Origin: a virus
Taxonomy: Duplodnaviria > Heunggongvirae > Uroviricota > Caudoviricetes
IMG/VR virus record: IMGVR_UViG_3300031867_000016
Span: 27,293-91,292 of that record
Strand: one strand, 5' to 3'
DNA length: 64,000 nucleotides
Of this stretch, positions 6 through 62,472 are shown piece by piece; within the stretch, counting starts at the first letter, position 1, and each line of letters begins with the position of its first letter. The notes beneath the pieces are model-generated. The model saw only the letters and a list, made by a program, of their open reading frames with translations. It had not been told where the DNA came from and made no database searches. A program made the position numbers and the translations under genes.

Positions 6-347
6 ATGCGTATGGCAAAGATGCCGCCAAGTATTGTTGAAGATAACGAAGGCTTTGACTGGGATGAGCTTGGTGAATCATTGAAGCTTGAAGTTGAAAT
101 GTATAACAATGAAAGTAATGATCTGGTTGTCCTTGCCAAACAGATCAGAGAATTCCTGCAGGAAGAAGTATCTCCTGTGGTTGCTCAGGAGCAGAATGAA
201 TTGTTTAAGAATATGGTTGAATATCTTAAAGCAAATAACGAACAGGCAAAAGAAAAGCCTAAGACATTAGGTGAAACAAAAGAAGAACAGATGGGACAGA
301 TTCATTATCTGTTTCCAAATCTTAACTTCGATGAAAAGAAGCATTGA
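6..347 (+). CDS. acidic hypothetical protein, putative tail assembly chaperone (lies immediately upstream of the tape-measure gene)
   Basis: 113-aa ORF, acidic and helical-looking. Position directly 5' of the TMP is typical of gpG-like chaperones. No motif recognised. The 5' end may be truncated by the window edge. Confidence 0.4.
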   Translation: MRMAKMPPSIVEDNEGFDWDELGESLKLEVEMYNNESNDLVVLAKQIREFLQEEVSPVVAQEQNELFKNMVEYLKANNEQAKEKPKTLGETKEEQMGQIHYLFPNLNFDEKKH

Positions 348-387: not shown

Positions 388-456
388 ATGCAGAATGCGT
401 CAGGCAGTTGCTGCGTGCAAGTCGTGGCTTCTGCATAATAATGGAGTGTGATACTT

Positions 457-16086: not shown

Positions 16087-17154
16087 ATGCAAGGTGGCTT
16101 TAGCTTTTGCGGTGTTGACATTGCAGAGTTTGGCATGGAATATGTGCCGCCATTGCAGTCAACATATGTATTTGGTAACGGTGGCTACCAGATAAACGAA
16201 CAGACCTATGAAGGCCATCACGGCGGCTATTACTATGGAGCAACAGTGCCGCCAAAAACTTTCAGCTTGCGATGTATGTTTGAAGACAGCGAAATAATAC
16301 GCGGTAATTTGACTCGCCTCGAAGGCTTCTTTAATATCGGAAGAACTGGAAGACTCATATTCGACAATAGAGACTGGCTTTACTATACCGCAACTGTTGT
16401 TTCGGTATCAAAGCCAGAGCTTACTAACAGAAGAAACGGTTTCGTAACGATAGGGTTTAAGGCATATTATCCGTTTGGCAGATGCGACAAAATGTATCTG
16501 ACTCATGACGGTATGTATGATTACTGGTTAGCGGATAACAGCGGCATTATGGAAGAGGATCTGACCCCTGTGATGTCGTTTGCAAATGTTACAAAGGAAC
16601 AGAATATTCTTCTGTATAATGGCGGCACAGCGCCAGCTTCAGTGGCTGTCGCTGTTGCCGGCAATGCTGGTGAAGGCATTACAATTACCAACAACACCAA
16701 CAAAACAAAGATGAAGCTTATCGCATTTGACCGTTCAGTTACGACTGATAAAAACGGTACAGTTATATGCGATGGACTCAGTCATAAGACTATATTAAAA
16801 AATGATGATAAGACAGAAATGAAGTTTATATATCATGACTACGGCTTCATTACTCTCGAACCATCATGTCCAATACGAAGAGATGTATACATAGATACCA
16901 AGCTGAATTCAGCTGAGGTGTACGGCTTTAACCTGTTTAATCCAAGTATGGTTGGCTACTATATACATCTCGAAGGTGAATGGAAAAAGATTAAGGCTAT
17001 CAAAGACAACAGCACTGCTGTTTTGGAAAAACCTCTGCAGCTTACAGACTCTGTAGTTACAAACATCGTAAAGATGAATGAGATAACTATAAGCCCTGAT
17101 GTAGGCTGCGAGCTTGATAAACTTGAATTTATATATAAGCCTACGTTCATATAA
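16087..17154 (+). CDS. distal tail protein (Dit, siphovirus tail-family protein)
   Basis: 355 aa. The N-terminus (FSFCGVDIAEFGMEYV…) fits the Sipho_tail/Dit pattern. It lies immediately downstream of the TMP. RBS is aaggcgg. Confidence 0.6.
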   Translation: MQGGFSFCGVDIAEFGMEYVPPLQSTYVFGNGGYQINEQTYEGHHGGYYYGATVPPKTFSLRCMFEDSEIIRGNLTRLEGFFNIGRTGRLIFDNRDWLYYTATVVSVSKPELTNRRNGFVTIGFKAYYPFGRCDKMYLTHDGMYDYWLADNSGIMEEDLTPVMSFANVTKEQNILLYNGGTAPASVAVAVAGNAGEGITITNNTNKTKMKLIAFDRSVTTDKNGTVICDGLSHKTILKNDDKTEMKFIYHDYGFITLEPSCPIRRDVYIDTKLNSAEVYGFNLFNPSMVGYYIHLEGEWKKIKAIKDNSTAVLEKPLQLTDSVVTNIVKMNEITISPDVGCELDKLEFIYKPTFI

Positions 17155-17175: not shown

Positions 17176-20100
17176 ATGGCTCTCAGCAGAGTATTGCATT
17201 TAAACCTATATGACTATTCGGGCAATAAGCTTTGCCCACTATATGACAGTTATTCTTCTGCTCCCGGCGACGCCGTTAACGTCATCATCCAGGATGAACG
17301 TAACGGCTGGCGGGAGCTTTATTTTGATCTTCCTACCGTTGTTCAAACGCAATATGGAACGATAGATAATTTCAGAATTGATTTCCTGAAAGCAGAATAT
17401 CTTATTGAAGCAATTGAAGAAAAGGGTACTGACTGGTTCTTTATCTCTCAGCCTAAAATTGTACACAATGCTTTTTCAAAGACACTGTCCGTTACATCTC
17501 CTCACATTTCTCAGTGGCTCAAGTATAAAAACCTTGGGCTGGAATTCTCTGACAATGAAGGTAACAATGTTGGAACAGCTAAAGAACTTCTTACTACTAT
17601 TCTTGAAGGCACAGGCTGGGAAGTTGGAGAGGTGTATAACTTCGCCGAGAAAGACGGTTCTACAAAATACAGATCTCTTAAAGCTTCATCCAAGACAGGT
17701 GCATTCAAACTTATCACAACGATGTGCGAACTCTTTGATGCAAGACCTGTATTCCATGGCGATACAAGAAAGGTAGACATCGTTCCGCTCAACCCGTTCT
17801 CTGAAGCAGAGCCTGGAGAAATTCAGAAGTATGCAGAAAAGAATGGAGTGCTGGAACTTCATTACGGATCGGCTCTCAAGAATATTACGCGTCTTGTCAA
17901 TACAGAAAACATAGTGACAAAACTCTATGCCTACGGAGCATACGGTGACAAAACATCAGGCTACTGTGCCATAGATGAATGTACTCACAATGAGTACACT
18001 TTTACTACAAATTCCGCGCTTGAATCTGGACATGAGTATTTCTTCGAGGTTAATGATACAGCTGGCAAACCAGTGAATTATTCCTTCACAGTTACAGAGA
18101 ATTTGGAAGCTGGAACAGTATTTATCTTCTCGCAGCTGGATCCGTGTTCCATGTCGTACATCTGGAGAGATACAGTTCTCGAAGGAGAGGGGCATGGCAA
18201 GGCTTACTTCGTTAAGAAAGGTAAGTCAGGCGAAGCTCTTGATGTAGAGATAACATCTGAACCCGAAGTACCGAACTGGTTTGGTTTTCTTCTGGACTTT
18301 GATTACTACATCGAAGTCGGTCTGTTCAGTGATGACATGCTGCAGAAGGTGGCTCTCTATCAGAGAGAGGCACCGCAGTATTACAAAGCAATATCTGAAG
18401 CATCCAAGACAATGTCTGACGCTGTGACTGAACTCAGCAAGACAGCCGGCGTATTTCCATACGCACGTCTTGCTGTCAAGAGAAAAGAACCTCTTCTTGG
18501 TGACGGCTATCTGACTCTTGTTCTGGACTATGAGAATTATGATCAGGGTGTATTGTATCGCTCTGACTTTGATGCCAATGTTGATACACGTTTCAAATGG
18601 ATTGTCACAGATGAACTTATGCCGAATGGTGATCCAGTGAATTCTGGCTGCTCAAGACTTTACATTGTTCATCCTGCTGACACAGGCAAGCCTATGACAT
18701 GGGATGTTCTCTGTCTCAAGAAAGTCATGGACGATCTTGTGAATCCGAAAGCTATTACACTGTGGGCTGACAAGGATGAGATAGAGATAGATGTAAGCAG
18801 AGATAAATTTTATCTCATGCAGAGTCTCAGCACAGCTGGTTATCTCGGCTACCTCGAAGCAAGAGACGAAGCAATTATGCAGGCTCTTGAAGACACAACA
18901 ACGATTGCAACCAATACGCATGAGGTTGTCTTCACAGACAAGAGTCCAAACAGCATTACTCCGCCAGTATCTGGCTCCAATGATGATCTGCCTTTTCCTT
19001 CTCCAAGAACAAATTCATATGGCTGGCTGTGGAGATACTATCCTATAAAGAATGAGGAAGGGAAATACCGCGAGTCAGACTTCTACTTCTGCAACACATC
19101 TTATGATGGCAACGAATGGAAGAAGGTTCACTTCTCCGATACAATGCCAGAAGATGCAAGCATCCAGTACTGGTACAACTGGAGAAAGAATACATTATCC
19201 AGAGCAGAGTTCAATACAGAAACTCAGGATCTCAACTGGAACATACTTACTGGGTACACAGACGAAAAGATCGCAAGCTACTTTGGTACAGTGTATTACT
19301 TTGGCAAAGCAAGAGACCGTGTATATCAGGGAGTAAACCGCAAGCAGATCTATGAGCTTGATGTAAACGAAACTCTGCCTGCCGGCAATTATTATTTTGA
19401 AGATGGTTATGGCAGCTATTGGGTATTCACAATTAAAGCTCCGTTGACTGGTCCAAATGCTTCCTTATCGTATGACGCATACGATAACTGGCTTACAATT
19501 AACAGAGATGGGATTACAGAATCTATCAAAGGCAAATCATACAGATTCGATTCGGTGAAGTATCATCCAGACAACATCATCAAGTCTCTTGCAAATACAC
19601 AGGGTTATATCAGCGAGAAGAACGGTGACATCGAAACCAGCTATAACATAACCAAGTATGAAAACTGCTGCTACACAAACGGCTTTACTCAGGTGTATCC
19701 AGATACAAAATACACGCTGTCCGAAGTTCCAAGCAATTCCTATATTCATTTCTACAATGACAAGAAGAGATGGATAGGCATGAAGCAGATAACAGACAAT
19801 ACGTTTGAGACTTCTGCTGACTGCTTCTATATCAGATTCAGTGCTGTGATCTACAAGAATTCTGAAGATCAAACTTCTTTGTTCAACTTGGACAATCTAG
19901 TTATAACCGTGACTCAGCCATTCGGTTCGTATATCGGAACATACGATAACACAATTGTTATCAGTGATATGACATATCTGAAGCTCAATGTGAATAAACA
20001 TGAAGGCGAAGTTATTGGTCTTATTGACGCAATGGAAAAATTCACAACTGGTTCAGATCATGTGTATCAGGAATTATATGTACAACTAAAGGAAGCACAG

Positions 20101-22740
20101 GATGCTGTCAAGGATCTTGAAAACAGAATGACATCTTCAGTTGGGGATATCTACAGGGAAGGCTACTGGCAGGATGCAAGTTATGTTGACGGTGATGAGA
20201 AGAGACTGTATGACGATGCAATTGAAAACATCGAAGAGATCTCAAAGCCAGACATAACATACAGCATAGGTTTCCTTGATCCATATTCTTCCAACGAAGA
20301 GAACATGGATTACGGTGCATCGGAAGAAAGTATTAAAGTTCCGTACACAGATGTAGATATTTCAACTGCTGTGCATCTGGTAGATCCAGAACTCAACATC
20401 AACTGCTGGGCTTATATTGACAAGCTTAGAAAATGTTACGACAAACCATGGCAGGATACTATTGAAGTCAATACAAAGCTTTCCACCATTGGTCAGCACA
20501 GCTTCACTGATGTCATGGCAAATATTGCCGATGTTGCCAGCGAAATGAAAGGCAAGAGCAGCAAGTACGATAACGCTGCAAACAAAGCTATTGCCGGTGT
20601 TGCTGTCAACATTGTCTCTCCGAACATCTCAGTAACTGAGCAATCCTTATCGTCCATCTATCAGCGCATTGAAAACATCGACAACAAAATTATTACCCAT
20701 GAAACCAGCATTACTCAGAATGCTGATGAGATAAGCAGTGAAGCAAGACGATCCATTGAATCAGAAGCTGAACTGTCTACGAAAATTACTCAGACAGCTG
20801 ATGATATCAAGACTGAACTCTTCGGTGTAAACGGTGATGGCAAGATCATACAGAGTTCTGAGGAATTCTCTTCGGTTTATCAGAACAACTACAACTATAA
20901 AGTTAATAAAGATCTGATTGAAACTGCACAGGACTTAAATGAAAAGAGAGTCGCATCAATACTTAATGATGCAAAGACAATCAATGATAAGAGAATTTAT
21001 AAATTAAAAGACAGAGCTATAGAGCTTAACCTTTCGAGAGATGAAGAAGGTAAGTTGTCTGAGAAAGACTCTAAAGAGTTAATTGATATTCTCAACCAGT
21101 TCAATGCATTCGGCCTTATTGACAGCGCTCTCTTGACTATTCAGGTTCCTGTTGTAGTAGAAGAACCGGGTACAGATGAGACTGGGGAATCTGGCAGCGG
21201 AGAAGGTACAGGCACTGGCGATAATCCTGGCGACGAAGAACCTGTTCCAGAAGAACCTGAACCTGTTCCTGAAGATCCAGATCCGTCAGGAGGATCTGAT
21301 GAACCAGATCCGAGTGAGGACGATCCAGCACCAATCGAAATCAGACAGCTTAACATTGAAGAAGCAGTCGAGTACAAAGACGTAGTTGCTGCAGTGCTTG
21401 ACAGTATAGACGAGAATGTATGGCTCGACGTTAGTGACGAAGGATTGCTTATTGCACGTCTTGAACAGCTTAAAACTGCAGGACTGATAGACGAAAGCGT
21501 TGATCTTACACAGCTTGTTAAGGTAATGAACGATGTTACCAATGCTATCAAAGATATAAGCAATGATGCTTTCGAAGATCCGCTTAAACGAGCAGAGCTT
21601 ATCGATACATTAACACAGCTTAAAGATGCAAAGGTTATCAGCGACGAAGTAGTTATCGAGGATATTGTTGATAGCAAAGAAGCTGTTGTGTCAGTTTTGA
21701 ATAAGATCCCTGTTTCTGAATACGAATATTTGATGAGCTCAATGAAGCAGACAATGTATGGCTTGTACTTGAACATCTATGGAACTGATGCTGAAGGTCA
21801 TATCATCACAACAGCTGACGAATTCAGATCTGTTTTCGAATCTGCAGACAGAGACCAGCGAACTAAAATGACGCAGACTATCTATGGTATGACAAACATT
21901 GTTGAGTCGAGTAACGGTATGACAATGATTGATCAGGACGACAGGTCTATTTCTGCTATTGTCAGAGGTATAAACTCCGATCCAAATGGTAAAAACAACT
22001 TCAATACTAGTGCAATCAGCATAAGCGATAAATCAATAAGCGTTTCAAGTACTGGAGAAATAAATATATCCGCAGGCGGAGCGTTCACTGTTGATACTGA
22101 AAACTTTGACTTAACAAAGGATGGCAGGCTTACTACGAACGAAGCTGTTCTTACCAATGCAAAGATTTATGGCGATATCTATAAGAATGGTTTCCCTGTA
22201 ATTGCGCTTGGAGAAGATATTATTGTTTCGCAGACACAGCCAGAAGGTGTGTATGGTCGAATCTGGATTAAACCAAATCCAAATTCTGGTTCTGGATCTG
22301 GTAGCGGATCTGGCAGCGGAACAGACACAACAAAGACTGGTACGGTAAAGTATACTGGTTCTTATTCCTTTGGTATAAGATCTTATGACAATCTTAATAC
22401 TCTTAACGTAACTCTTTCCGGTACAGGCTTCGCTTCTAATTCAACTAACTGTACATACAATGTAAGGTTTGACTTCTTTATGCCTTCGTCGGAAGGAAAG
22501 AAAACTCCAGGTGGCGGTAAACTTATTGTTACATTGGCTGGTGCCATCTCTGAAGAAACTGAACTGTATACTGGCGCTGGAAGTAAGAGTGTCAATCTTA
22601 CATTCAATTCTTCAAAATGGATTGGCACAGGCAGCACTATGAATTTCAGAGTAAGTGTATCTGGTGTTCGTGGTTATAACTGTACGTTCCTGAATAATGC
22701 ATTCTCTTCCAACATTACTGTCACATGTACCGCTAAATAA
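17176..22740 (+). CDS. tail-tip protein (Tal, prophage-tail N-terminal domain) with long C-terminal extension
   Basis: 1854 aa. The N-terminus (LYDYSGNKLCPLYDS…) resembles the Tal/prophage endopeptidase tail N-domain. Strong RBS aaaggagga. The C-terminal part has an acidic Pro/Glu linker (EEPVPEEPEPVPEDPDPS) and a (GS)n linker. Confidence 0.65.
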   Translation: MALSRVLHLNLYDYSGNKLCPLYDSYSSAPGDAVNVIIQDERNGWRELYFDLPTVVQTQYGTIDNFRIDFLKAEYLIEAIEEKGTDWFFISQPKIVHNAFSKTLSVTSPHISQWLKYKNLGLEFSDNEGNNVGTAKELLTTILEGTGWEVGEVYNFAEKDGSTKYRSLKASSKTGAFKLITTMCELFDARPVFHGDTRKVDIVPLNPFSEAEPGEIQKYAEKNGVLELHYGSALKNITRLVNTENIVTKLYAYGAYGDKTSGYCAIDECTHNEYTFTTNSALESGHEYFFEVNDTAGKPVNYSFTVTENLEAGTVFIFSQLDPCSMSYIWRDTVLEGEGHGKAYFVKKGKSGEALDVEITSEPEVPNWFGFLLDFDYYIEVGLFSDDMLQKVALYQREAPQYYKAISEASKTMSDAVTELSKTAGVFPYARLAVKRKEPLLGDGYLTLVLDYENYDQGVLYRSDFDANVDTRFKWIVTDELMPNGDPVNSGCSRLYIVHPADTGKPMTWDVLCLKKVMDDLVNPKAITLWADKDEIEIDVSRDKFYLMQSLSTAGYLGYLEARDEAIMQALEDTTTIATNTHEVVFTDKSPNSITPPVSGSNDDLPFPSPRTNSYGWLWRYYPIKNEEGKYRESDFYFCNTSYDGNEWKKVHFSDTMPEDASIQYWYNWRKNTLSRAEFNTETQDLNWNILTGYTDEKIASYFGTVYYFGKARDRVYQGVNRKQIYELDVNETLPAGNYYFEDGYGSYWVFTIKAPLTGPNASLSYDAYDNWLTINRDGITESIKGKSYRFDSVKYHPDNIIKSLANTQGYISEKNGDIETSYNITKYENCCYTNGFTQVYPDTKYTLSEVPSNSYIHFYNDKKRWIGMKQITDNTFETSADCFYIRFSAVIYKNSEDQTSLFNLDNLVITVTQPFGSYIGTYDNTIVISDMTYLKLNVNKHEGEVIGLIDAMEKFTTGSDHVYQELYVQLKEAQDAVKDLENRMTSSVGDIYREGYWQDASYVDGDEKRLYDDAIENIEEISKPDITYSIGFLDPYSSNEENMDYGASEESIKVPYTDVDISTAVHLVDPELNINCWAYIDKLRKCYDKPWQDTIEVNTKLSTIGQHSFTDVMANIADVASEMKGKSSKYDNAANKAIAGVAVNIVSPNISVTEQSLSSIYQRIENIDNKIITHETSITQNADEISSEARRSIESEAELSTKITQTADDIKTELFGVNGDGKIIQSSEEFSSVYQNNYNYKVNKDLIETAQDLNEKRVASILNDAKTINDKRIYKLKDRAIELNLSRDEEGKLSEKDSKELIDILNQFNAFGLIDSALLTIQVPVVVEEPGTDETGESGSGEGTGTGDNPGDEEPVPEEPEPVPEDPDPSGGSDEPDPSEDDPAPIEIRQLNIEEAVEYKDVVAAVLDSIDENVWLDVSDEGLLIARLEQLKTAGLIDESVDLTQLVKVMNDVTNAIKDISNDAFEDPLKRAELIDTLTQLKDAKVISDEVVIEDIVDSKEAVVSVLNKIPVSEYEYLMSSMKQTMYGLYLNIYGTDAEGHIITTADEFRSVFESADRDQRTKMTQTIYGMTNIVESSNGMTMIDQDDRSISAIVRGINSDPNGKNNFNTSAISISDKSISVSSTGEINISAGGAFTVDTENFDLTKDGRLTTNEAVLTNAKIYGDIYKNGFPVIALGEDIIVSQTQPEGVYGRIWIKPNPNSGSGSGSGSGSGTDTTKTGTVKYTGSYSFGIRSYDNLNTLNVTLSGTGFASNSTNCTYNVRFDFFMPSSEGKKTPGGGKLIVTLAGAISEETELYTGAGSKSVNLTFNSSKWIGTGSTMNFRVSVSGVRGYNCTFLNNAFSSNITVTCTAK

Positions 22741-24377: not shown

Positions 24378-25367
24378 TTAAAAGCATAACGCCGCATACA
24401 TGGCGTCAAATCCATCGCCGTACAGATGAATGTATGTATTGTATGTGACCTGTACAGAACTGTGTCCCATCAATCGGCTAAGGATCTTTACGTCAATGCC
24501 TTTATAATAACAGTTGGTTGCAAACGTGTGTCTGAAGACATGTTCTCCGTAGTAGGGGATATTGTTTTCCTGACACAGTTTTTTAGTTTGATACACAAGC
24601 TTCTTGTAAGTGTAGCGCTCTCCGTCCTGCTCAAACACCCATTCGGTTGTACGCTTAAGCTGCAGTGTTTTCAGCAGCAGCAAAGCTTTTGGTGTGAGAG
24701 GAATGGTTCTATTGCTCGCCTTACTTTTGGGTGAATCCTGATAAGTGCTCTTATTTGTCGCATGTGGATTGATGATCGTGGCATGTATTCGCAGCCGGCA
24801 TCTTGATATATTTACATCGGACCATTTGAGAGCAAGCAGTTCTCCGCTTCGAATACCTGTTTCGATCATGAACAGCATCGCAACATACCCGGCATTATCC
24901 ATGTTTTCTTTTACGGCCTTGGTAATGATTGCCTGCTCCTCTTCAGTGTACGCAATTATTTCTTTTGTCTGCTTCTCAAGTATCTCTACCTTTGGATACT
25001 CTATCCCTATAGATGGATCAGCCGGTATGAGCTTCATAGAAGCTGCTCTCTTCAAAGGTGCTGTCACGATCTCAACTTGTTTCTTGATCGTGCTCATACT
25101 GTAATTCTGTTCAACCAGCCAGTTCAAATAAGCTTGAACATCGAACAGATTGATATCACGGATAGGTACCTTTGCCAGAGGATGGCTTGCGAATGTATTG
25201 CGACTCTGAACAAGCCTTGCGAATGTTGCCTTCTTAACAGAATTCTTTTTAAACAGTTCAAGCCATGTATCAATAAAGTCAATCAATACTGTATTTGAAT
25301 CCACTCTGAGTTCCTCCAATCGAGAAACCCCATTGCGGACATCAGTGTACATATTTAATTCAGACAT
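24378..25367 (-). CDS. int: tyrosine site-specific integrase (phage integrase family)
   Basis: 329 aa. The C-terminal catalytic region contains HVFRHTFATNCYYKGIDVKILSRLMGHSSVQVTYNTYIHL (R…H-x-x-R…Y). The N-terminal part resembles a SAM-like core-binding domain. RBS is gaggaa. Confidence 0.9.
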   Translation of the reverse strand: MSELNMYTDVRNGVSRLEELRVDSNTVLIDFIDTWLELFKKNSVKKATFARLVQSRNTFASHPLAKVPIRDINLFDVQAYLNWLVEQNYSMSTIKKQVEIVTAPLKRAASMKLIPADPSIGIEYPKVEILEKQTKEIIAYTEEEQAIITKAVKENMDNAGYVAMLFMIETGIRSGELLALKWSDVNISRCRLRIHATIINPHATNKSTYQDSPKSKASNRTIPLTPKALLLLKTLQLKRTTEWVFEQDGERYTYKKLVYQTKKLCQENNIPYYGEHVFRHTFATNCYYKGIDVKILSRLMGHSSVQVTYNTYIHLYGDGFDAMYAALCF

Positions 25368-37119: not shown

Positions 37120-37770
37120 TTATTCGTAATAATAACGTTTAATTATCTTAACATTTTTAGCACAAGCATACGCAAATTCTGTTGCTTTGTAATCAATCGG
37201 ACCGCAATCTGGTTGTTCTAATATACCCCAATCTGTTATTGTAGGTTCAGGCATAGAGAGATAATATGATAAGTCATCTCCAAATATTTCGAATTTCCCG
37301 TTTTTATTTACGCCTGGAAATGCACCAAAATGATCTCCATCAATATGTTCAAAGTTAAACTCATAAATTTTGCCAAAATAACTTTCGTCAACCACCGGCA
37401 CATATGCTCTATAACTTACATCTTCAATGTACTCTGTGAGAGATTCACCGAATGGTAATTCTGTAACATATAGCGTTGGAGCAGGTGTAATACAGCTTTC
37501 ATTTGATAATCTTACAATATGTTTTACTGTTTTTTCTGTAATGACTTCGATATTCAATGTATTACCAGCACGACCAGCAACATTATTAACAACAAAAATA
37601 TAATGAAAGTCTTCTAGTCCGTCATCATTTGTATAGCATTCTCTAAATTTTGTATATTTAGCACCGCTCATTCTCAAGAATATATCCCATCTCAGTTCAA
37701 GCGGATCACAGAATAAATCATTATCACTTATCATTGTGCACATGTTGCTTGTATATCTTGTTTTGTACAT
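37120..37770 (-). CDS. hypothetical protein
   Basis: 216-aa ORF. Confidence 0.5.
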   Translation of the reverse strand: MYKTRYTSNMCTMISDNDLFCDPLELRWDIFLRMSGAKYTKFRECYTNDDGLEDFHYIFVVNNVAGRAGNTLNIEVITEKTVKHIVRLSNESCITPAPTLYVTELPFGESLTEYIEDVSYRAYVPVVDESYFGKIYEFNFEHIDGDHFGAFPGVNKNGKFEIFGDDLSYYLSMPEPTITDWGILEQPDCGPIDYKATEFAYACAKNVKIIKRYYYE

Positions 37771-37790: not shown

Positions 37791-39068
37791 TTATGCAACA
37801 TTTCGCGGTGCGTAGAAGCGTCTTTTGTGTTCAGCCTGTCTGTCTTCAGACCATTTCGACACACGAGTCAGATAGCCGATAACCCTTGTTGCATAGTCCA
37901 GGTTATCAGAACCGCACTCAGGACACTCATTCAGCTTATGCTTGCTGATATGCCCACAATTGTTACAGACTGTGTTGGGAATATTGAATGTAAAGTAGTT
38001 GCAACCAGTCTTAATAGCATATTTAAGCAGTTGCTCGTACTGTGCTTTGCTTAAATGCTCTTCGAGATTGCAGTGCAGAGCAGAACCACCATCGAGATAC
38101 TGAGTAAACTCTTTGCCATGCAGCTGGAACTTATCTATCGGGTTTGTCTTTTCATCTTCTACAACATAGAAATAAGAGTTGTAGCATGGACGAGGTACAA
38201 CATAACCATCAGCTTTATCCCACTTAGCATTCTTTACGCCAAGGTTTTCTGCCGGCACAAATTCTGTATTAAACATAGCATCCTTTGTCTTGTCTGCTTT
38301 GTTTAATTCATAGATCGGCTTAAGAATAGAATTGATGTATGCTTTGTAATGATCATTATTTGAGATCTCGATGCCAAGATATTCAGCGCCTTCGACTGCA
38401 CCATTGATTCCAACAGTCAAATACTCTTTTTCAGGGCTGATAAAGCCAGCATCATAGATCGAAATCATATGTTTGCGAGTCATATCGAGAAGTATCTCAT
38501 TATATGCTGTGAGATACATATGAATAAGTTTTGTCTGTTCTGCTACAGCATATGAGATATCTTCAAGGTTCTGATCAAAATTGCTTTCGCTTCTGATTTC
38601 ACTTATGTCTTCTTCTCCATGCTGACATCCCATCAGATCACACATTCTATTCTGCACAAGACGATTTACATTTATCGTCATAACACATTTGCTGCCAGTA
38701 GCGATACCGCCAGCGCCGAGCGTATAACTGAACTGGTTCTCTGTAATGCCGTTGCGAAGTCTGCAGCATGATGCAAGACTGTCAACACTGTCACTAACGT
38801 AGGTGAAAAAACTGTGACCTTCCGCATACATTTCAGCTGCGAAGTCTGCCCATTCCTTATCGGCAAAGTCATCACCATGACTCAGCAGAGACAGAGTTTC
38901 AACAGGGAAGGTGAGAATGCACCTGAGTCTTTCGGCATTGAACCATTTCATAAACTTCTTCTGAAGCCAGCTTACAGATTCCCACTGCATGGTGGTGCCA
39001 TCTGGAAATACAAAGTCTTCGAACAGACTATTGAAATAGTACTTGTCGAAGTAGGCTACATTCCAAAA
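37791..39068 (-). CDS. nrdD: anaerobic ribonucleoside-triphosphate reductase NrdD, 3' exon (C-terminal part with Zn ribbon and glycyl-radical region)
   Basis: The C-terminus contains CNNCGH…CPECG followed by RVIGYLTRV (glycyl-radical loop). The reading frame is open upstream of the annotated ATG, up to a TAA at 39072-39074 (…KFWNVAYFDKYYFNSLFEDFVFPDGTTMQW…). The exon boundary is approximate. Confidence 0.6.
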   Translation of the reverse strand, partial: FWNVAYFDKYYFNSLFEDFVFPDGTTMQWESVSWLQKKFMKWFNAERLRCILTFPVETLSLLSHGDDFADKEWADFAAEMYAEGHSFFTYVSDSVDSLASCCRLRNGITENQFSYTLGAGGIATGSKCVMTINVNRLVQNRMCDLMGCQHGEEDISEIRSESNFDQNLEDISYAVAEQTKLIHMYLTAYNEILLDMTRKHMISIYDAGFISPEKEYLTVGINGAVEGAEYLGIEISNNDHYKAYINSILKPIYELNKADKTKDAMFNTEFVPAENLGVKNAKWDKADGYVVPRPCYNSYFYVVEDEKTNPIDKFQLHGKEFTQYLDGGSALHCNLEEHLSKAQYEQLLKYAIKTGCNYFTFNIPNTVCNNCGHISKHKLNECPECGSDNLDYATRVIGYLTRVSKWSEDRQAEHKRRFYAPRNVA

Positions 39069-39360
39069 CTTTTAATGTTCAGTACAGCTCGCTACACTGT
39101 ACCCGTTTATATAAAAACAGCCATACATTTCTGTATGGAACAGACTATATCACAACCTTAAATAAGGTTCTCCCCATTTCCATCGCCAATCGCTTGCGAT
39201 GTACTCCCTTTCGGGATAGTCGTTGAGCCTTCATCTTTTCTTAGATGCTTGGCTGCTAGTTGTCTTTTTATATCCATTATTTAATGGATATAACGAAGAG
39301 TTTCCAGCAATTAAAGGAGTTTGCTTCAATCATCACTGATTAAAGGCGCGTTTTGTTCAC
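39069..39360 (-). ncRNA. ~290-nt structured insert interrupting nrdD; putative self-splicing group I intron
   Basis: No long ORF on either strand. Two GAAA (GNRA) tetraloop hairpins (ccataca-gaaa-tgtatgg; tccc-gaaa-ggga) and a perfect 8-bp hairpin (tatccatt-aaat-aatggata) are present. The NrdD reading frame resumes on the far side. Confidence 0.4.
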
Positions 39361-40020
39361 GCTCTGGGATCCACGGGCAGCAGCAGGCTGATTCATACTG
39401 TATACGACCTGTTGAAAATGATCAGTAATAATATCATTGATGGTGCGGCGCCTCTTTGAGTAGTCAACAACATAGTCTGGCATCTCATAGTAGTTGTCAC
39501 CGTATTCTTTGCGAAGGAAGTAGTCCATATACGCAAGGAACTCAGGTGTCGCAACAGCTCCCTTGAGCTGTGCTGACACCGCAAACACCAGGTTGATGAA
39601 TGAACCACAGAATGAATCAAGGTTCTTTGGTGCTACGGTTGTACCGCTTAGCTTTGTCATGCCGTCAAACAGCAGTGGATACAGCGTAATGGATGCACAG
39701 TAGGGGACACCAGCAAATGGAAAAGTACTCTCATCGTGTGTATAAATTTCATGCTTCTCAAGCTGTTCAATATACTTGTCGGCTATTTCTTCACCGTATA
39801 ATTCGAGAAGCTTATCGTGCATCATAAGTCTGTTAGTATAAATGTTTTCCTTCTTGTGTACCTCAGGTGCCATTGTTGCGATATTCTTGCCAGACACATT
39901 GCTGTTTGCATCAACCTCACTGCCAGACGCTGAGTTCTGTGCACCAATGTATTTATTGACAAAGTTGATGTTCTTTCTGCGAAGCTCGTATTTTCCTGCT
40001 ATCGCCATATCAGTCACCAC
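39361..40020 (-). CDS. nrdD: anaerobic ribonucleoside-triphosphate reductase NrdD, 5' exon (N-terminal part)
   Basis: The 226-aa ORF ends …NQPAAARGSQS|VNKTRL*. Its N-terminal region resembles the class III RNR ATP-cone/core. The exon end is approximate. The ORF track runs on to a stop at 39340 inside the insert. Confidence 0.6.
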
Positions 40021-55377: not shown

Positions 55378-58300
55378 TTAAATTGCAAAACCGAAACAGA
55401 AACCATTTGTTGTATTGTTTGCATGTGATGACCAGTTATTTCCTGCGTAACCATAATAATACACTTCAAGGAAGTCCGTAGATCTTCTGTCATCATTATT
55501 ATTTGATGTATTAATGTAAGTGCTTGGAGTTCTAAGCCACCAATATGCATTAGAGCTGTCACCAAGTTTTGTTTTTGTTCTCGAAGTATTGCCATTGAAA
55601 TAACTGATTCGTCCCTGACATTCCTGATTTGTCCAACTCATAGTTTCTGTAGAGCTTACCGATACAATTTCAGCATAAGAAGGTATGAACACATAGTCGG
55701 AACTTTCATAAACTGTATTTGTATTTCCAGAACCAGGACAGCTTTTTATCTGCACCTGTGACATAATGGCACGCCATGCTGGATCAAAGCAATAATAAAT
55801 TCTTTCATTTAGATACCGTCTCATTAACGTGTCTCTCCAGCCGCCAACGTTTGTGCTTGCTGCGTTCATCACGCAGCTGCTAGAGAACAGTTCTTTGGAA
55901 TACAAGTTAAGCCCGGCGTAATTAGTAGAGCCAGTCTTCTGATACATACGGAAATTAGTATTCGAATTACTGTCAACGAGGCCACTGGCAATGAATGTAT
56001 ATACTTCGTGAGGCCAGCATGCAAGCTTTTTGCAAGCTGTATCACCAAGATCGCCTTCCCAGTATTTCATTTTATACACTTTGCCAGCCGCGAGGTTGCC
56101 TTCATGACCATCTGAAACATAATATCTACAGCCAACAGCAAGCTCTGAGTTATTAATGATTGCAGCATCTCTCGATATACTGCCAGTTCGAATATCAAAA
56201 CTGCCGTTGGTCGTTATATCTCTTGTATCTGCAGAATAAATATATAAAGTTGGATCTCCAAGTATATGTCTTATTACTACAATATCTCTTCCTGTAAGGT
56301 TATTATTATTGGATTTCAGATTGAAAGAATCTCCACCAAATTCTATGCGTGGACCATTTATTGTCTGTACAAGGGCAAATCCGTCTGACTCGTTTGTACA
56401 AGACACAAGAGTTGCCTTGCCTGATGTATCAGTCTGATCGAAATTGTAATCGATCATAAGTGTAAACGGCTTGTCTTTATCAAACAGATTGATATCTGTT
56501 TTGATAATATTGGTAGTGTCATTGCCGTTAAACGTAACCGTATCAGCAACAATTTCATGACTTGTAACGTTTGCATAATCAAGATCGCAGCCCATAGATA
56601 TCTGTGTTGTGTCTCCGCTCTTTATCATTTCGTAATAAGCAGCAGAAGTTCTATCGGAGTTTCGACCACCGTTACTTGCAAGTATCCCGGCTTTACCCAT
56701 TGCATAGATCTGCATAGGAGTCATGTCGGCAAACGGAGTACCGCTGGCTGGAACCTTTCCTTCGTACCATGTCGGATACACGTCAATATTTTCTACAACA
56801 CTGCCGGTACTCTTATCCCAGTCTTTAAACAGGCGATATGTGCCAGTGGAATCTCCAGTAGTATTCGTAGGAATTTCTTTTTCATATATGGCTTCTTCGC
56901 CATAATCGTATTCGCCTTCCTGGAGAAGCGTAGTTCCGTTGAACCATCTTACTTTATACTTCTTTGCCTTTTGGCTATACACAGCTTTATACGATTCATT
57001 TTCGTTGCCTACGGCTGTTATCGGTCTATCCCAGCCTACAAATGTATATTCTGCTACGTTTGTTTCTGGTCTTGTCGGCGTATCAATAAGCTTATCTTTG
57101 ACAGGATCAAGAGGAGTATCTCCCTGGCTCAACGACTGTTCATTCAGCGTGCTGTCATCCCAGTCGAGGAACGTAACAAGACGTTCTTCTTCTGGTTCGT
57201 TACGATAATTAATAACAAGTTCGTCGCCATATGCTTCATGAAGCTTTGAGAGGAGAGTAGAACCAATACTGTCAACAGCGATTGTGCCAGTAATAATTGG
57301 ATAAGCAGTAGAACCCTGAGGCTTGTTGCCATTCTCGTCAACATATTTGCCTTTGAGTGTCAGCAGTTTCTTAAGGAAAGCTGTATCAGAACCAAGATCG
57401 GCATTAACACCAGTCAATCTGATATTTTCAAGCTGATCAATAAGCTGAGTACCATTTTCTTCGTCCACTACTGTTGTGAGAAGTCCGATGCTGTCAATGA
57501 TCGGAGTATTCTCTACGATAAATGTTTTTACGTTGTTGAGCGAAGCATATTTAAAGGTCTTGAGCTTCGTCATATTTTTAAAGACGATAGAGGACGGCGA
57601 AGTAATATCAAGTGTTTCAAGAATGCAGCCATCAGCAAAGTTGAAACCTGATATCTTTGGTGTGTTAGAAGCATACACTTCTTTGAGATATGGATTCTTA
57701 GTGAAGTCGATAACACCCTGAAGATTCACACATCCAGAAATATTAATCTTTTCAAGGAGAATGTTGTTCGTAACATTAACAGCTTCAAGAGATTCGTTCA
57801 TATATCCTTCTTCAGAAGAACCGATTGTAATAGTTTTCAGTCTTGTAGCTGCAGATATATCAAGGTTCCACGGATAGAACTTAGAGATATCACCAAGTTC
57901 AACAATATCAGACGCACCATGAATACTGACTGTATCAGAAGTACCAAGACCCTTATTATATCTGATGGTTGTTTTCTCGTTGGCATCGAGAATGTCGGAG
58001 CTTACAGTAACCTTTGAGTCGCCATAGCTTACAGACATACGCATTTTCTGCACGGGTCTTAATTCGATTGCAGTGTTCTTCATCGAAATATCTTTGCCAG
58101 GTCTGAAGAAGATATAGCTGTTTAAGAACTGATCGCAAAGATATTTGCTGTACAAAAGATGTGAACGCTTATACATAAACGATTCCTTCTGTTCAGTTCT
58201 TGAACCTCTCTGAAGATATTTATATTTTGATGTATAAACATAAGGCTTCTTTTCATCTGAGTAATCAATATATCCTTTTGTTATAGGATCTTCATACTTG

Positions 58301-61300
58301 TATTCCATGTCTCGGTTTATAACTGACGGACATACAAGATCTGCGTTATCTTCAATGTGAGTCTTATGAAGTGTTGCATAGCTCAAATAACCTATACCAT
58401 TTGACTGTCTGGTTAAAGTCTTTGCTCTTTCGGCGATTTCAGAAGCAAATGCTTCTTCAAACATCTTCCAAAACACACTGTCGTGACCAGAGAAAACATA
58501 GCTGTCTTCGCTTTCGCTCGTGTGGTAATCCCAGTCTGCATAATAAGGTATATTCAAACGACCTGTATTATTCACGCCAAAGCATGAGTCGAGGTCGTAT
58601 AGATCGGCGTACCATATAGCAAATGTAGAATTGTTCCAGTCAATAGCATCGACATTTAAACTGCCATCGTCTTTTCTGATTTCAGCAATAGATGTCGCAC
58701 CGTTTGTGAATTTAATATCCTCTACAGTAACATCCTTACAGCTCAGGAACATATTCTTTGCTCTGTTATCGCACAGACAAACAAATTCCATAAACAGATA
58801 ATACACAAGAGCATGTTCAAGGTTTAAATGCTTTGTAAATTCTTCCTTGAAGATCTTTTTCTTTGCTTCGCGTGTTGCGTTGTCTGTTGCTTCCCAGAAA
58901 TTAGCACGCTGGCATATCCACGTGTACAATACATGAATGTAATCATAATTCGGAGTAAGGTTATCGTCTTCAAGATCGCCTTCATCGGGGTAGCATGATT
59001 CCAGTCCGTGCTTTACATTAAGAATATTGTTACCTTTTTCATCCTTAATCATTTCATAGAATTTATCGGACTTGAATTTGCAGATATCACTGGAATTGGT
59101 TTTGAACTCCCATTTCTGCTGCTTGGTGACGTTGCCTTTGTCTCCTGCTGTTTTTAAACCAAAGCTTTCAACGTTGCCTTTATCATTGTTAAGACAGCCG
59201 TCGCCGGCAAAGGTAAAGTCACTGTCACTGTATGCTTCGTTAAGGAAGTCTTCGCCCTTGTATTTGCTCAGCGGCATATTGAATAACAGGCAGCGGAAAC
59301 CATACACCGTATTCTGAACAAGCGAACCTGGCTGTTTATCGTTGAACAGCGTATCAGCAATGTTTGCGTTGAAAGTATTTGCATGGTCTGTAGACATGTA
59401 GTCGATCTTGTAACAGAGAGTTGACTCTGGCACAGATTTCGCAGTACCGTCTGCATTAAGACCTTTCAGTGCATACTTTATTTTCTTTTTCACTTCGCTT
59501 GTTTTACCTTCATCATCAGTTACAGTCTTCACTTTGCCTTCTTCATCACGATCATACTTTGCAAGCTTGACTTTGTAATTCTTTCTGATGTACTGCTGCG
59601 AGCTTGTTCCTTGTACGTTATTGATGCAGGCAAATACATTGCTGTCATCCATATCAAGGCATGAGAATTCAGTTGTAAAGCCACCGTTATTATCTGGTTT
59701 TGTCAGTACAGCTCCGCATGGCTGTTCATCGCCCTTATAACCAGACAAATTACCGATGAGAAGCAGACATGGATACTTGTAAATTGCTTTCCGATAAGAG
59801 ACATCGTTGTTGACGATCATGTCATTGTAGGCGTTCTGCGCCAGTCTTTCCTTGATGTCAGTAGAAGAGTTCATGTAGTTCTGAAGAACTTCTTCATCTG
59901 TAAGATCACGGTTGTACATGCGTATATCATACAGCTTTGTAATACAGCCGTTGGAACCAATAACAATTGCAGCTTTTCCATCATAATCCATGCCAGTAGA
60001 CGGATACAGATAGGAGTTTGCATATTCACCATTCACAAAAACATTGACACACTGTGTTTCATGCTCTGCGCCTGGTATTATTTTCTGAACAACGAAGCTG
60101 ATTCTGAGTCTCTTTTCATCTTTGAGATAAGCGCATGGAATATCACTTTCGTTGTGGATGAAGCCATCTTCATCAAGTTCAAGTTCCTGTCCTTTTGCCA
60201 GCAGATAACATACCTGAGGATTGATAACAAACTGTGCACCATTATCGGAAATGTATTCAACGACATTTTCAGACTCGTCTGTTACGTTGTTCATCGACAG
60301 TTCGATTTCAATCGTTCTGCCTGTGGTTGTAACATGAGCATTCGTGCTGCTGTCAAGTGCAACAGTTTTTCCATCTTTATTCTCAAAAGAAGAATACAGA
60401 ATTGGAAGATCAATTGTCATACGTGCATCGCCTGAGAGTGTAAGAGCACCAGACTCAAGATAACCATCAGATGCCCAGTTAAAACCAGTCATGTCAGCAT
60501 ATATGTTTACAGCTTTTTCTGTACCTTTATTGAGAGTGTAGACATATGTTTCCTTGCCAACGCTGTCATTCTTAATACCAATCGGCTTATACGAATACAC
60601 GAGTCCTGTTTCAATCTGGTTTGTTTCATATTTCTGTGCTACAGCTTCAACATTGAAGTCCATATAGGCTGTACCGTTTTCATCGCTTGTAACAAGACGA
60701 ACAACTGCAGCACCAGATGCTGGATATGTGTCTTCTGAAAGCTCCAGCGTTTCCATTCTGTTGCATCTGATATTAGTAGATACATCACTGTAATACGTTG
60801 GTACAAACACGCCGTTGGCGTTGAGCTCGCCAACGGCGATGTTCAACTTGGACATTCTTTCTTTTCCCGGAGCGTAAACCACATAGTGAATGACCAGTTT
60901 ATCTCCATATTTGATATTGCTGTTTTCGAGATATGCACCAACCATTTCGTCTGTGTTGCCAGATTCATCATCGTAAAGGATAGGAAATACGACACGATTG
61001 GATTCAGTTGCATCATCTGAAACATAATACAGAGTCGCAGTATGTGCGCCATAAGACAGCTTCGATGAATCAATCAACAGCTGGTTATTTTTGTTATGAT
61101 CCTTACCGATGTTTGCAGAAATAACAGGAGTCTTATTATCATCGAGAAGCAAATACACAGTCTTATTAATGTCGTTTCCTATAGGAATATAAGGAATCGG
61201 AACATCGCCTCTGTACAAAGATGACGAATCAAAAGAAGTAGAGATGCTCATCTCTACACATGTCACATAATAGTCAATGTAAGCAGTCTTTGTTTTTGTC

Positions 61301-62472
61301 TTCCCGTCTTCATTGACTTCGGTATTTACTTCTACATGGAAAACCGTGATGTTACCGGGCGTAAGGTAATCAGATACATCGAGTGTCTGCTGTACTCCGC
61401 TTGCTATCTCTTCGTTATTGCTGATCATTTTATAATTGGCATCCTGCGAACCTTTATACGACACAGAGAGATAACCATTCTGGTTGATAACCGTAGAGCC
61501 GAAGTACAAATAATACGTATAAGACAGAGTGCATTTTGAATTCTGCGTTGTCTTTATTCTTGTCGATGAAGAATTGTTCTGCAGCATGACACTGTATACA
61601 GGAACGCCGCTTCCGCCGCCGCCAGTCAGTGTAATCGCTGCTGTTTCCTCATCATTTGCTTTCTTGAACTTCAACTCGTGCGTGCTCTCATTATATGTAT
61701 AGCTTACAAAACCATTTGCAGCATCAGACGCTGCCAGCTGTACAGCAACGTTAATGTCATCGATGGCATTGTTAATCTTCTGAATCGTATTTCTTGGTTC
61801 AGTAAGACCAATGTTGGAGTTTGTTGCAAGAGTAGAAAGATCAATATTCTGCCCACCGGTTGACGCATCCTCGATCATGTCTTCGACCTGAGTCGTGGTC
61901 ACATATGTATCCTGGGCTTCAGTCTTCGTAAGATAACCTTCGGCATCCGTCTTGGAAACATAGGTAGATTCAGCATCAGTCTTGGAGAGGTAGTTTGCAT
62001 CTGCATCGGTCTTGTTTATATAGGTTTCAGCAGCAGCTGTTGCCGTGAGGTAATCGTTGTCAGCAGATGCAACATTTTCAAGAGCAGTATCGATCTCTTC
62101 TTTTGTATAGTAATTCGTAAGGTTGACGTTATCCAGCGCCGTGGAAAGCTGATCCTTTGTGGCATAGCCTTCCAGAAGCTGATTCACTTCAGCCTTTGTA
62201 TAGTTATTATTCAAATCAATTGTAACGCTTGATCCTGTAATAGCAGTACCGTCAGACTTCACGAGCTGGAGTACGCCGGTTTCAGAGTTGAACGAGAAGC
62301 CAACGGCTGCTTCGTTGCATTTCGCCTCAAGCGTCTTCAGTTCTGCATCGATCATGTTCATGGCAGAGGTAGCCTCGGTGCCATTCACAAGCGTTCTCCA
62401 TTCGAGAAAAGTCATGACAGTCTCGTCTCTGGATACAAGCGGCAATCTATAATTAGTCGTAAATTGAGCCAT
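55378..62472 (-). CDS. giant tail fibre/host-specificity protein (2364 aa)
   Basis: N-terminal fibre-like heptad-type repeats (NYLSKTDAESTYVSKTDAEGYLTKTEAQDTYV). C-terminal Listeria-Bacteroides repeats (YTFVGWDRP…YKAVY; YRLFKDWDKS…YPTWY). Long β-rich central region. Confidence 0.65.
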   Translation of the reverse strand: MAQFTTNYRLPLVSRDETVMTFLEWRTLVNGTEATSAMNMIDAELKTLEAKCNEAAVGFSFNSETGVLQLVKSDGTAITGSSVTIDLNNNYTKAEVNQLLEGYATKDQLSTALDNVNLTNYYTKEEIDTALENVASADNDYLTATAAAETYINKTDADANYLSKTDAESTYVSKTDAEGYLTKTEAQDTYVTTTQVEDMIEDASTGGQNIDLSTLATNSNIGLTEPRNTIQKINNAIDDINVAVQLAASDAANGFVSYTYNESTHELKFKKANDEETAAITLTGGGGSGVPVYSVMLQNNSSSTRIKTTQNSKCTLSYTYYLYFGSTVINQNGYLSVSYKGSQDANYKMISNNEEIASGVQQTLDVSDYLTPGNITVFHVEVNTEVNEDGKTKTKTAYIDYYVTCVEMSISTSFDSSSLYRGDVPIPYIPIGNDINKTVYLLLDDNKTPVISANIGKDHNKNNQLLIDSSKLSYGAHTATLYYVSDDATESNRVVFPILYDDESGNTDEMVGAYLENSNIKYGDKLVIHYVVYAPGKERMSKLNIAVGELNANGVFVPTYYSDVSTNIRCNRMETLELSEDTYPASGAAVVRLVTSDENGTAYMDFNVEAVAQKYETNQIETGLVYSYKPIGIKNDSVGKETYVYTLNKGTEKAVNIYADMTGFNWASDGYLESGALTLSGDARMTIDLPILYSSFENKDGKTVALDSSTNAHVTTTGRTIEIELSMNNVTDESENVVEYISDNGAQFVINPQVCYLLAKGQELELDEDGFIHNESDIPCAYLKDEKRLRISFVVQKIIPGAEHETQCVNVFVNGEYANSYLYPSTGMDYDGKAAIVIGSNGCITKLYDIRMYNRDLTDEEVLQNYMNSSTDIKERLAQNAYNDMIVNNDVSYRKAIYKYPCLLLIGNLSGYKGDEQPCGAVLTKPDNNGGFTTEFSCLDMDDSNVFACINNVQGTSSQQYIRKNYKVKLAKYDRDEEGKVKTVTDDEGKTSEVKKKIKYALKGLNADGTAKSVPESTLCYKIDYMSTDHANTFNANIADTLFNDKQPGSLVQNTVYGFRCLLFNMPLSKYKGEDFLNEAYSDSDFTFAGDGCLNNDKGNVESFGLKTAGDKGNVTKQQKWEFKTNSSDICKFKSDKFYEMIKDEKGNNILNVKHGLESCYPDEGDLEDDNLTPNYDYIHVLYTWICQRANFWEATDNATREAKKKIFKEEFTKHLNLEHALVYYLFMEFVCLCDNRAKNMFLSCKDVTVEDIKFTNGATSIAEIRKDDGSLNVDAIDWNNSTFAIWYADLYDLDSCFGVNNTGRLNIPYYADWDYHTSESEDSYVFSGHDSVFWKMFEEAFASEIAERAKTLTRQSNGIGYLSYATLHKTHIEDNADLVCPSVINRDMEYKYEDPITKGYIDYSDEKKPYVYTSKYKYLQRGSRTEQKESFMYKRSHLLYSKYLCDQFLNSYIFFRPGKDISMKNTAIELRPVQKMRMSVSYGDSKVTVSSDILDANEKTTIRYNKGLGTSDTVSIHGASDIVELGDISKFYPWNLDISAATRLKTITIGSSEEGYMNESLEAVNVTNNILLEKINISGCVNLQGVIDFTKNPYLKEVYASNTPKISGFNFADGCILETLDITSPSSIVFKNMTKLKTFKYASLNNVKTFIVENTPIIDSIGLLTTVVDEENGTQLIDQLENIRLTGVNADLGSDTAFLKKLLTLKGKYVDENGNKPQGSTAYPIITGTIAVDSIGSTLLSKLHEAYGDELVINYRNEPEEERLVTFLDWDDSTLNEQSLSQGDTPLDPVKDKLIDTPTRPETNVAEYTFVGWDRPITAVGNENESYKAVYSQKAKKYKVRWFNGTTLLQEGEYDYGEEAIYEKEIPTNTTGDSTGTYRLFKDWDKSTGSVVENIDVYPTWYEGKVPASGTPFADMTPMQIYAMGKAGILASNGGRNSDRTSAAYYEMIKSGDTTQISMGCDLDYANVTSHEIVADTVTFNGNDTTNIIKTDINLFDKDKPFTLMIDYNFDQTDTSGKATLVSCTNESDGFALVQTINGPRIEFGGDSFNLKSNNNNLTGRDIVVIRHILGDPTLYIYSADTRDITTNGSFDIRTGSISRDAAIINNSELAVGCRYYVSDGHEGNLAAGKVYKMKYWEGDLGDTACKKLACWPHEVYTFIASGLVDSNSNTNFRMYQKTGSTNYAGLNLYSKELFSSSCVMNAASTNVGGWRDTLMRRYLNERIYYCFDPAWRAIMSQVQIKSCPGSGNTNTVYESSDYVFIPSYAEIVSVSSTETMSWTNQECQGRISYFNGNTSRTKTKLGDSSNAYWWLRTPSTYINTSNNNDDRRSTDFLEVYYYGYAGNNWSSHANNTTNGFCFGFAI

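Follow-up and report, generated by a model that had tools for sequence, protein, structure and literature searches.

A predicted ORF-less, sunY-related group I intron in a phage nrdD gene with a 3' splice junction that is one nucleotide short

The stretch of viral DNA analyzed here, referred to as the window, comprises 64,000 nucleotides and contains the anaerobic ribonucleotide reductase gene nrdD of a gut or rumen phage. According to the ORF listing of the 64-kb window, the gene is present in two pieces that are both located on the minus strand, as the first-pass annotation of the sequence had stated. The upstream ORF (40008..39340, minus strand) specifies 222 amino acids counted from its ATG and has the C-terminal end ...AARGSQSVNKTRL; its reading frame passes the edge of the insert as ...RGSQSV-NKTRL and is terminated by the stop codon at 39342-39340. 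The second piece occupies a frame that is open from 39070, and hence right up to the insert as claimed before, to the stop codon at 37791. The first ATG of this frame is located at position 38990, no start closer to the junction being present in the ORF listing, and gene callers give nrdD as two ORFs of 222 and 399 amino acids. Both the zinc ribbon (CNNCGH...CPECG) and the glycyl-radical loop (RVIGYL) that had been assigned to the C-terminal piece were recovered there. The intervening sequence of 39069-39358, which had been described as ORF-less and about 290 nt long, indeed contains no ORF of more than 39 amino acids in the ORF listing. The neighbouring genes on the same strand encode ThyX, a glutaredoxin, a protein of 216 amino acids and an NrdG-like radical-SAM activase. 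The ORF for the 216-aa protein (37120..37770, minus strand) is located between nrdD and the gene of the NrdG-like activase, a position that is conserved in the identical contigs L081 and L082, and its product is without a Pfam or PHROG match.

Several large genes are located elsewhere in the window. An uninterrupted ORF of 5192 amino acids (448..16026, plus strand) matches tape-measure families with its C-terminal half (phrog_4211, E 2e-30) and is followed by genes for a Dit protein (16087..17154) and a minor tail protein of 1854 amino acids (17176..22740). For a contig of ~113 kb this tape measure is exceptionally long, and a very long tail is to be expected from it. Additionally, the presence of a tyrosine integrase (24378..25367, minus strand; phrog_1, E 5e-53) makes a temperate lifestyle probable; the intron patterns that were tried on the GTDB genome collection detected no matching prophage. 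For a further ORF of 2364 amino acids (55378..62472, minus strand), all matches are PHROGs without an assigned function (phrog_14959, E 8e-74).

When the two pieces of nrdD are joined as ...RGSQSV-FWNVAYFD..., the resulting sequence of 642 amino acids matches the Pfam family NRDD (PF13597) over residues 53-635 with an E value of 1.6e-92 and can be aligned without a break over the junction with the NrdD protein of Thermotoga maritima (PDB 4COI, E 4e-65). The join restores the sequence RGSQSVFWNVAYFD, and the motif RGSQSVFWN[IV]AYFD occurs in more than 100 uninterrupted homologues, comprising nearly all of the best 120 metagenomic ones, whose identity reaches 84%. The alignment of the joined protein, which the first-pass annotation had suggested as a check, thus places the join at ...RGSQSV/FWNV... 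(a slash denotes a junction), and the joined protein corresponds to a full-length NrdD. The join RGSQS/FWNV put forward earlier drops the conserved valine and is one codon off, because the insert lies inside the Val217 codon (GU/N) and not after Ser216; in nucleotide terms, ligation of AGC (39361) to UUU would in addition require that the splice site be formed by a C-G pair. Ligation of U39359 to G39063, with G39064 as the terminal guanosine, was likewise rejected, since the product ...SVNVAYFD lacks the conserved Phe-Trp. In practice, the two nrdD ORFs merit annotation as a single spliced gene. The coordinates of the exons and of the individual intron elements are compiled in Table 1.

Table 1. 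Exons of nrdD and predicted elements of the intron. Intron nucleotide 1 is G39358, and a window coordinate equals 39359 - i for intron nucleotide i.
Feature	Window coordinates	Intron nt	Strand	Remarks
nrdD exon 1	39359..40008		-	ATG 40008 to U39359; 216 codons and the first two nucleotides (GU) of Val217
Group I intron (predicted)	39069..39358		-	from G39358 to the terminal G39069, 290 nt if spliced canonically
nrdD exon 2	37791..39068		-	begins UUU UGG AAU; stop at 37791
P1	39362-39359 (exon GCGU) / 39349-39346 (GCGC)	exon GCGU + G1 / 9-13	-	GCGU pairs with GCGC; U39359.G39349 wobble
Internal guide sequence CAAAACGCGC	39346..39355		-	letters read straight from the sequence
P2 (AAUCA-GUGA-UGAUU)	39328..39341	18-22 / 27-31	-	5/5 pairs change on both sides
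P3	39319-39314 / 39175-39170	40-45 / 184-189	-	pseudoknot with P7
P4		50-55 / 100-105	-	mapped helix
P5		60-63 / 93-96	-	mapped helix
P5a	39268..39293	66-76 / 81-91	-	10-11 perfect bp; 4-nt loop AAAU
P6		106-108 / 130-132	-	mapped helix
P6a		112-116 / 123-127	-	compensatory changes
P7 (GACUAU / AUAGUC)	39221-39216 / 39148-39143	138-143 / 211-216	-	invariant in 6/6 sequences
P7.1 (CCC-GAAA-GGG)	39215-39206	144-146 / 151-153	-	compensatory changes
P7.2 (CAUCGC/GCGAUG)	39201-39181	158-163 / 173-178	-	compensatory changes
P8	39169-39154	190-195 / 200-205	-	compensatory changes
P9	39121..39138	221-227 / 232-238	-	7 bp, GAAA tetraloop; 5/7 pairs change on both sides
P9.2 (GUACAG-UGUAGCGAG-CUGUAC)	39082..39102	257-262 / 272-277	-	followed by UGAACA; 5/6 pairs compensatory
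3' terminus AAG	39069..39071		-	P9.0: A39071-A39070 with U39140-U39139 in J7/9

The insert had been proposed to be a group I intron on account of its hairpins, and this proposal is well supported. A scan of the entire 64-kb window at the Rfam gathering thresholds yielded a single match, namely to Intron_gpI (RF00028) at 39368..39121 on the minus strand, which covers the model positions 1-253 of 253 with a score of 81.6 bits (gathering score 50) and an E value of 3.5e-19. The predicted folding energy of the intron amounts to -84.6 kcal/mol compared with -59.1 +/- 4.6 kcal/mol in dinucleotide shuffles (z = -5.5). The Rfam score and the z-score together indicate that the insert is not a product of chance, and the sequence evidence supports its assignment as a group I intron. 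Since P7.1 and P7.2 are present, the core appears to be of the subgroup-IA type, whereas its tentative placement in IA2 is based on the resemblance to the sunY intron of phage T4 rather than on a subgroup-specific model. Both GAAA-capped hairpins recognized in the first-pass annotation correspond to elements of the predicted structure, P9 (39138-39121) and P7.1, as does the perfect hairpin, P5a, which nevertheless comprises 10-11 bp and not 8; its strands read UAUAUCCAUU and AAUGGAUAUA.

The predicted secondary structure is complete from P1 to P9.2, and all core helices are maintained in the window copy. U39359 represents the uridine at the 5' splice site, and its wobble pair with G39349 is invariant in 6/6 same-site introns, while C39350 of the guide pairs with the first intron nucleotide, G39358. 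The guide segment CAAAA (39355-39351) can additionally form P10 with UUUUG at the beginning of exon 2 (39068-39064). The P7 region (39143..39221, minus strand) encloses P7.1, P7.2 and P8, and the pair G39221-C39143 (G138-C216), which follows the bulged C39222 (C137), is the predicted guanosine-binding site. G39069 occupies the position expected for the terminal guanosine (omega-G) and is positioned by P9.0, whose pairs covary (UU/AA, AU/AU and AA/UU) among the same-site introns, with T4 sunY included. An alignment of six same-site sequences, from which the ORF-containing loop had been removed in silico, provided comparative evidence for this structure: 96.5% of the cells were paired, in contrast to 33-47% when the 3' partners were slid by one to three columns, changes on both sides occurred at 37/79 pairs, and the observed covariation was reached by none of 500 shuffles. 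Compensatory changes affect P2, P5a, P6a, P7.1, P7.2, P8, P9 and P9.2, so that every variable helix covaries, and intron nucleotide 1 covaries with guide position 9 (G-C or A-U, 3:3).

On this structural basis, splicing would be expected to proceed by the usual pathway. The exon 1 end GCGU and the guide segment GCGC would form P1 with its U39359.G39349 wobble, and an external guanosine held at the G-C pair of P7 would attack after U39359. The terminal G39069 would next take over the guanosine site, placed there by P9.0 (AA/UU) and P10 (UUUUG/CAAAA), and ligation of the exons would complete the reaction. Self-splicing is thus a predicted activity of the window copy. Group I introns in ribonucleotide reductase genes of phages are a textbook phenomenon, and the window intron in itself represents an ordinary kind of element. 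As an endonuclease gene is absent from it, only passive movement can be expected.

The complete core with every helix maintained also argues against the view that the remains of a dead intron or an unrelated insertion split nrdD, which would then give rise to two separate polypeptides or to no product. Gene callers list the two ORFs separately, and a ribonucleotide reductase encoded by genes in pieces is known from nrdA of Aeromonas phage Aeh1 (PMC3653736), but a start at the ATG at 38990 would cost 26 conserved residues (FWNVAYFD...DGTT), and we regard this view as highly improbable.

Relatives of the intron were identified by a protein search with exon 1 alone, which led from dozens of truncated N-terminal NrdD fragments to the corresponding contigs. 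Introns at the same site were found in L088, L089/L090, L091, L103 and L105-L107, and a DNA pattern search added L125; the junctions of these relatives are canonical (U/...G/) and in frame. The introns of L088, L089, L091, L103 and L105-L107, which are metagenomic contigs of uncultured rumen or gut phages, encode an HNH protein and share with the window copy the insertion point GCGU/, P1, the guide sequence and a core with 80-88% identity, and the respective phages are syntenic with the window with regard to ThyX, glutaredoxin, nrdD and the NrdG-like activase. They differ from the window copy in the P5a loop, which comprises 716-995 nt with an HNH gene of about 720-1000 nt in the relatives but only AAAU in the window; in pairwise alignments, the insert of the relatives falls between intron nucleotides ~75 and ~82. 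The deduced proteins carry a C-terminal Pfam HNH domain (PF01844, 28.6 bits with a cut-off of 21.4) along with repeated HTH domains. The last ~11 codons of the HNH genes (...GYKKT[IT]SSQAS) overlap the 3' strands of P5a, P5, P4 and P6 (39245..39280, minus strand), which shows that the ribozyme core of this family accommodates the 3' end of the endonuclease gene. In the window copy, which lacks the HNH gene, the reading frame of this HNH end persists as a small ORF at 39231..39329.

By this comparison, the window copy is an endonuclease-less derivative from which the ORF has been cleanly lost. The intron of L125 (IMGVR_UViG_3300031994_000305) is likewise ORF-less, with a length of 254 nt and the same site, core and 3' domain, but differs from the window copy by a minimal P5 hairpin (GUCU-UUCG-AGAC) without P5a and by canonical junctions that are in frame. 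The presence of only this minimal hairpin indicates that the ORF of L125 was lost independently of that in the window copy. Intron-less alleles are common (L001-L009 and L109) and read AGC, AGT or TCA followed by GTN-TTY-TGG, the intron-less target at the insertion site being ...CAGAGCGTGTTTTGGAAT... An HNH gene in the P5a loop would account for the spread of the element among the nrdD alleles of this phage clade by homing. At a single site, all stages in the life of a homing intron are thus represented: empty alleles, introns carrying an HNH gene and two independent ORF-less derivatives.

Other interruptions were observed in nrdD genes of the same clade. They recur after FWN[IV]A, with read-through tails such as LTNRAA, and after LTFPV, with the tails NLAA or SELAA, among the homologues P0121-P0240; L073 (~358-1421) provides an example of the FWN[IV]A site with weak intron similarity. 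The ORF-containing or different-site introns of L073 and L083 were not detected by Rfam at the gathering threshold. Moreover, NrdD versions of 970-1008 amino acids contain inteins (PF14890), as in P0234 with the sequence RGNQ/CVRADKT.... Accordingly, nrdD in this phage clade constitutes an insertion hot spot, with at least three intron sites as well as inteins in a stretch of ~70 codons.

A peculiarity of the window copy became apparent at its 3' end. All eight same-site relatives read GCGU/...G/N-UU(U or C)-UGG, where N completes the Val codon, whereas the window reads …AUUAAAAG-UUU-UGG (AAAAGTTTTGG) and has a single nucleotide in place of the terminal G and N of the relatives. In the alignment of six sequences the window is one column short precisely at the 3' junction. 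The terminal G39069 is present, but the canonical ligation of U39359 to U39068 is off frame, in contrast to 8/8 relatives, and results in AGC GUU UUU GGA AUG UAG, that is ...SVFGM with a stop three codons on. Canonical splicing would therefore shift the frame and truncate NrdD. For exon 2 to continue the frame of exon 1, G39069 has to be counted as exonic as well, and an in-frame mRNA thus needs the removal of 289 nt, either with A39070 as the last intron nucleotide or with a 5' cut after G39358. The junction obtained by removal of 290 nt (canonical) is AGCGUUUUUGG and that obtained by removal of 289 nt (in frame) is AGCGUGUUUUGG. The first-pass annotation had found that the junctions could not be fixed by eye and had thus sensed the difficulty, without diagnosing a 3' splice site that is 1 nt short. 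A frameshifted product is uncomfortable, because both exons, the adjoining activase gene and the ribozyme core, all intact apart from the deficit of 1 nt, look like parts of a functional gene.

The deficit is most likely due either to a real deletion of one nucleotide or to an error in the consensus. An error of consensus or assembly, with an ordinary intron in a genome that truly reads G/GUUUUGG or G/UUUUUGG, would be compatible with the presence of the extra base in every relative and with the location of the missing base in or beside short homopolymer runs (AAAA-G-TTTT-GG); the junction would then be AAAAGGTTTTGG or AAAAGTTTTTGG. However, runs of four to five bases are rarely miscalled in a short-read consensus, the platform being assumed here. 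The sequence of the window is identical in two assemblies from different assemblers, an ENA MEGAHIT contig (112,917 bp) and a Logan contig (SRR9036512), which may nevertheless share the sample, and the very long ORFs of 5192, 2364 and 1854 amino acids are uninterrupted. The identical assemblies and the intact long ORFs make a sloppy consensus unlikely, and we consider an artefact to be unlikely as well, although it ranks as the next most likely cause after a real deletion. A third copy of the junction was found neither by exact-protein look-up nor with junction patterns in viral, metagenome and genome collections. A looser guide-sequence pattern detected unrelated soil contigs only, and the 27-kb contig L109, whose NrdD belongs to the 90%-identity cluster of exon 2, is intron-less at the site and has a scaffold gap.

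If the deficit is real, NrdD might still be produced in frame by non-canonical splicing that removes 289 nt, with exon 2 beginning at G39069 or a 5' cut after G39358. Among the candidate products only this one matches the homologues, the exons and the ribozyme are otherwise intact, and it is suggestive that the guide can pair without a mismatch, one pair being U.G, with the in-frame product GCGU-GUUUUG. Against this speak the unchanged and invariant guanosine-binding G-C pair of P7, to which a terminal A should not bind, and the U.G wobble at U39359 in all relatives, with G39358 forming a covarying Watson-Crick pair on the intron side of P1. Moreover, in 8/8 relatives the 5' cut follows a U and the intron ends in G. 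We know of no natural precedent for such a non-canonical group I junction, and a literature search for one found none. In our estimation this type of splicing is very unlikely; if it does take place, the window would contain a natural group I intron that ends in A or is cut at a G-C pair on its 5' side.

Alternatively, the canonical product GUU-UUU-GG could be corrected during translation by a -1 slip of ribosomes on the U-run that restores ...SVFWNV.... If tRNA-Phe shifted from one UUU to the UUU that overlaps it, exactly the sequence of the homologues would result, and the zero frame stops three codons past the slip site. On the other hand, read in the incoming frame, the site is no X-XXY-YYZ heptamer. 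The 75 nt downstream have a folding energy of -15.8 kcal/mol versus -12.1 +/- 2.6 kcal/mol in homologues (rank 5/39), which is not exceptional. A -1 slip is needed by no relative, and there is very little to be expected of this route, which would make a recoding site dependent on splicing. Taken together, a real deficit from which functional NrdD is nevertheless made, by the non-canonical junction or by the -1 slip on the U5 run, appears quite improbable, and a true non-canonical rescue is a small residual possibility.

The locus is thus very probably to be read as an ORF-less, sunY-related group I intron whose canonical splicing shifts the frame of nrdD after a real and recent deletion of one nucleotide, and a new splicing mechanism is not the preferred explanation of the deficit. 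The loss of one base from a short run (GG to G, or T5 to T4) would have inactivated nrdD and left an intact ribozyme inside the now frameshifted gene. The window copy would provide either a clean natural test of the strictness of 3' splice-site selection or a gene caught just after its inactivation.

The locus can be compared with known systems at several levels. A megablast search of GenBank phages detected no close relative of the locus, and distant blastn matches were restricted to core similarity with introns of Lak, Enterocloster, Staphylococcus, E. coli and Campylobacter phages. Group I introns that split a phage nrdD gene have been described for T4, Lactococcus phage 949 and the Jug phages (PMC3653736, PMC12880540), in agreement with the earlier remark that phage nrdD genes such as that of T4 host introns, and splicing of the Jug phage nrdD intron is backed by metatranscriptome reads (PMC12880540). 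In the Jug jumbo phages and in phage 949, the interruptions of nrdD consist of small group I introns without an ORF, of endonuclease genes and of inteins; these phages belong to other lineages than the window phage, and they are likened to it by published description.

The sunY intron of T4 nrdD, which belongs to subgroup IA2 and carries I-TevII, shares with the window intron the host gene, the conserved NrdD region, a core with P7.1 and P7.2, an identical P7 (GAUAUAGUC) and the geometry of P9.0. Over their last 42 nt, which include AAACGGG, the hairpin with the GUAGCGA loop and UGAACA, the two introns are 86% identical. A sunY-like 3' domain (TCAACGACTAT ... GTGATATAGTCTG ... GUAGCGA-loop hairpin, GAACA) was also observed in 32 IMG/VR contigs (L110-L141), several of which form near-identical groups; the downstream sequences differ, except for L125 at the same nrdD site. 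The boundaries of the T4 intron (…UAUGAGU/UAACG…ACACAUUG/AUGAAG) were determined by enumerating in-frame splits and are confirmed by the spliced peptide, which equals residues 168-193 of the T4 NrdD crystal sequence (PDB 1H78). A tblastn search with the window NrdD gave no match to T4 nrdD, and the T4 site was placed on the window protein by a local motif alignment made by eye. By this placement T4 nrdD is interrupted at Tyr180, equivalent to Tyr203 here, whereas the window intron is inserted at Val217, ~14 codons downstream, and the guide sequences differ because of the different insertion sites. Furthermore, the T4 intron comprises 1033 nt in all with a GIY-YIG gene that separates P9 from the 3' domain, in contrast to 290 nt without such a gene in the window, and the same-site family of the window intron carries its HNH gene in the loop of P5a, unlike the placement of the GIY-YIG gene in T4.
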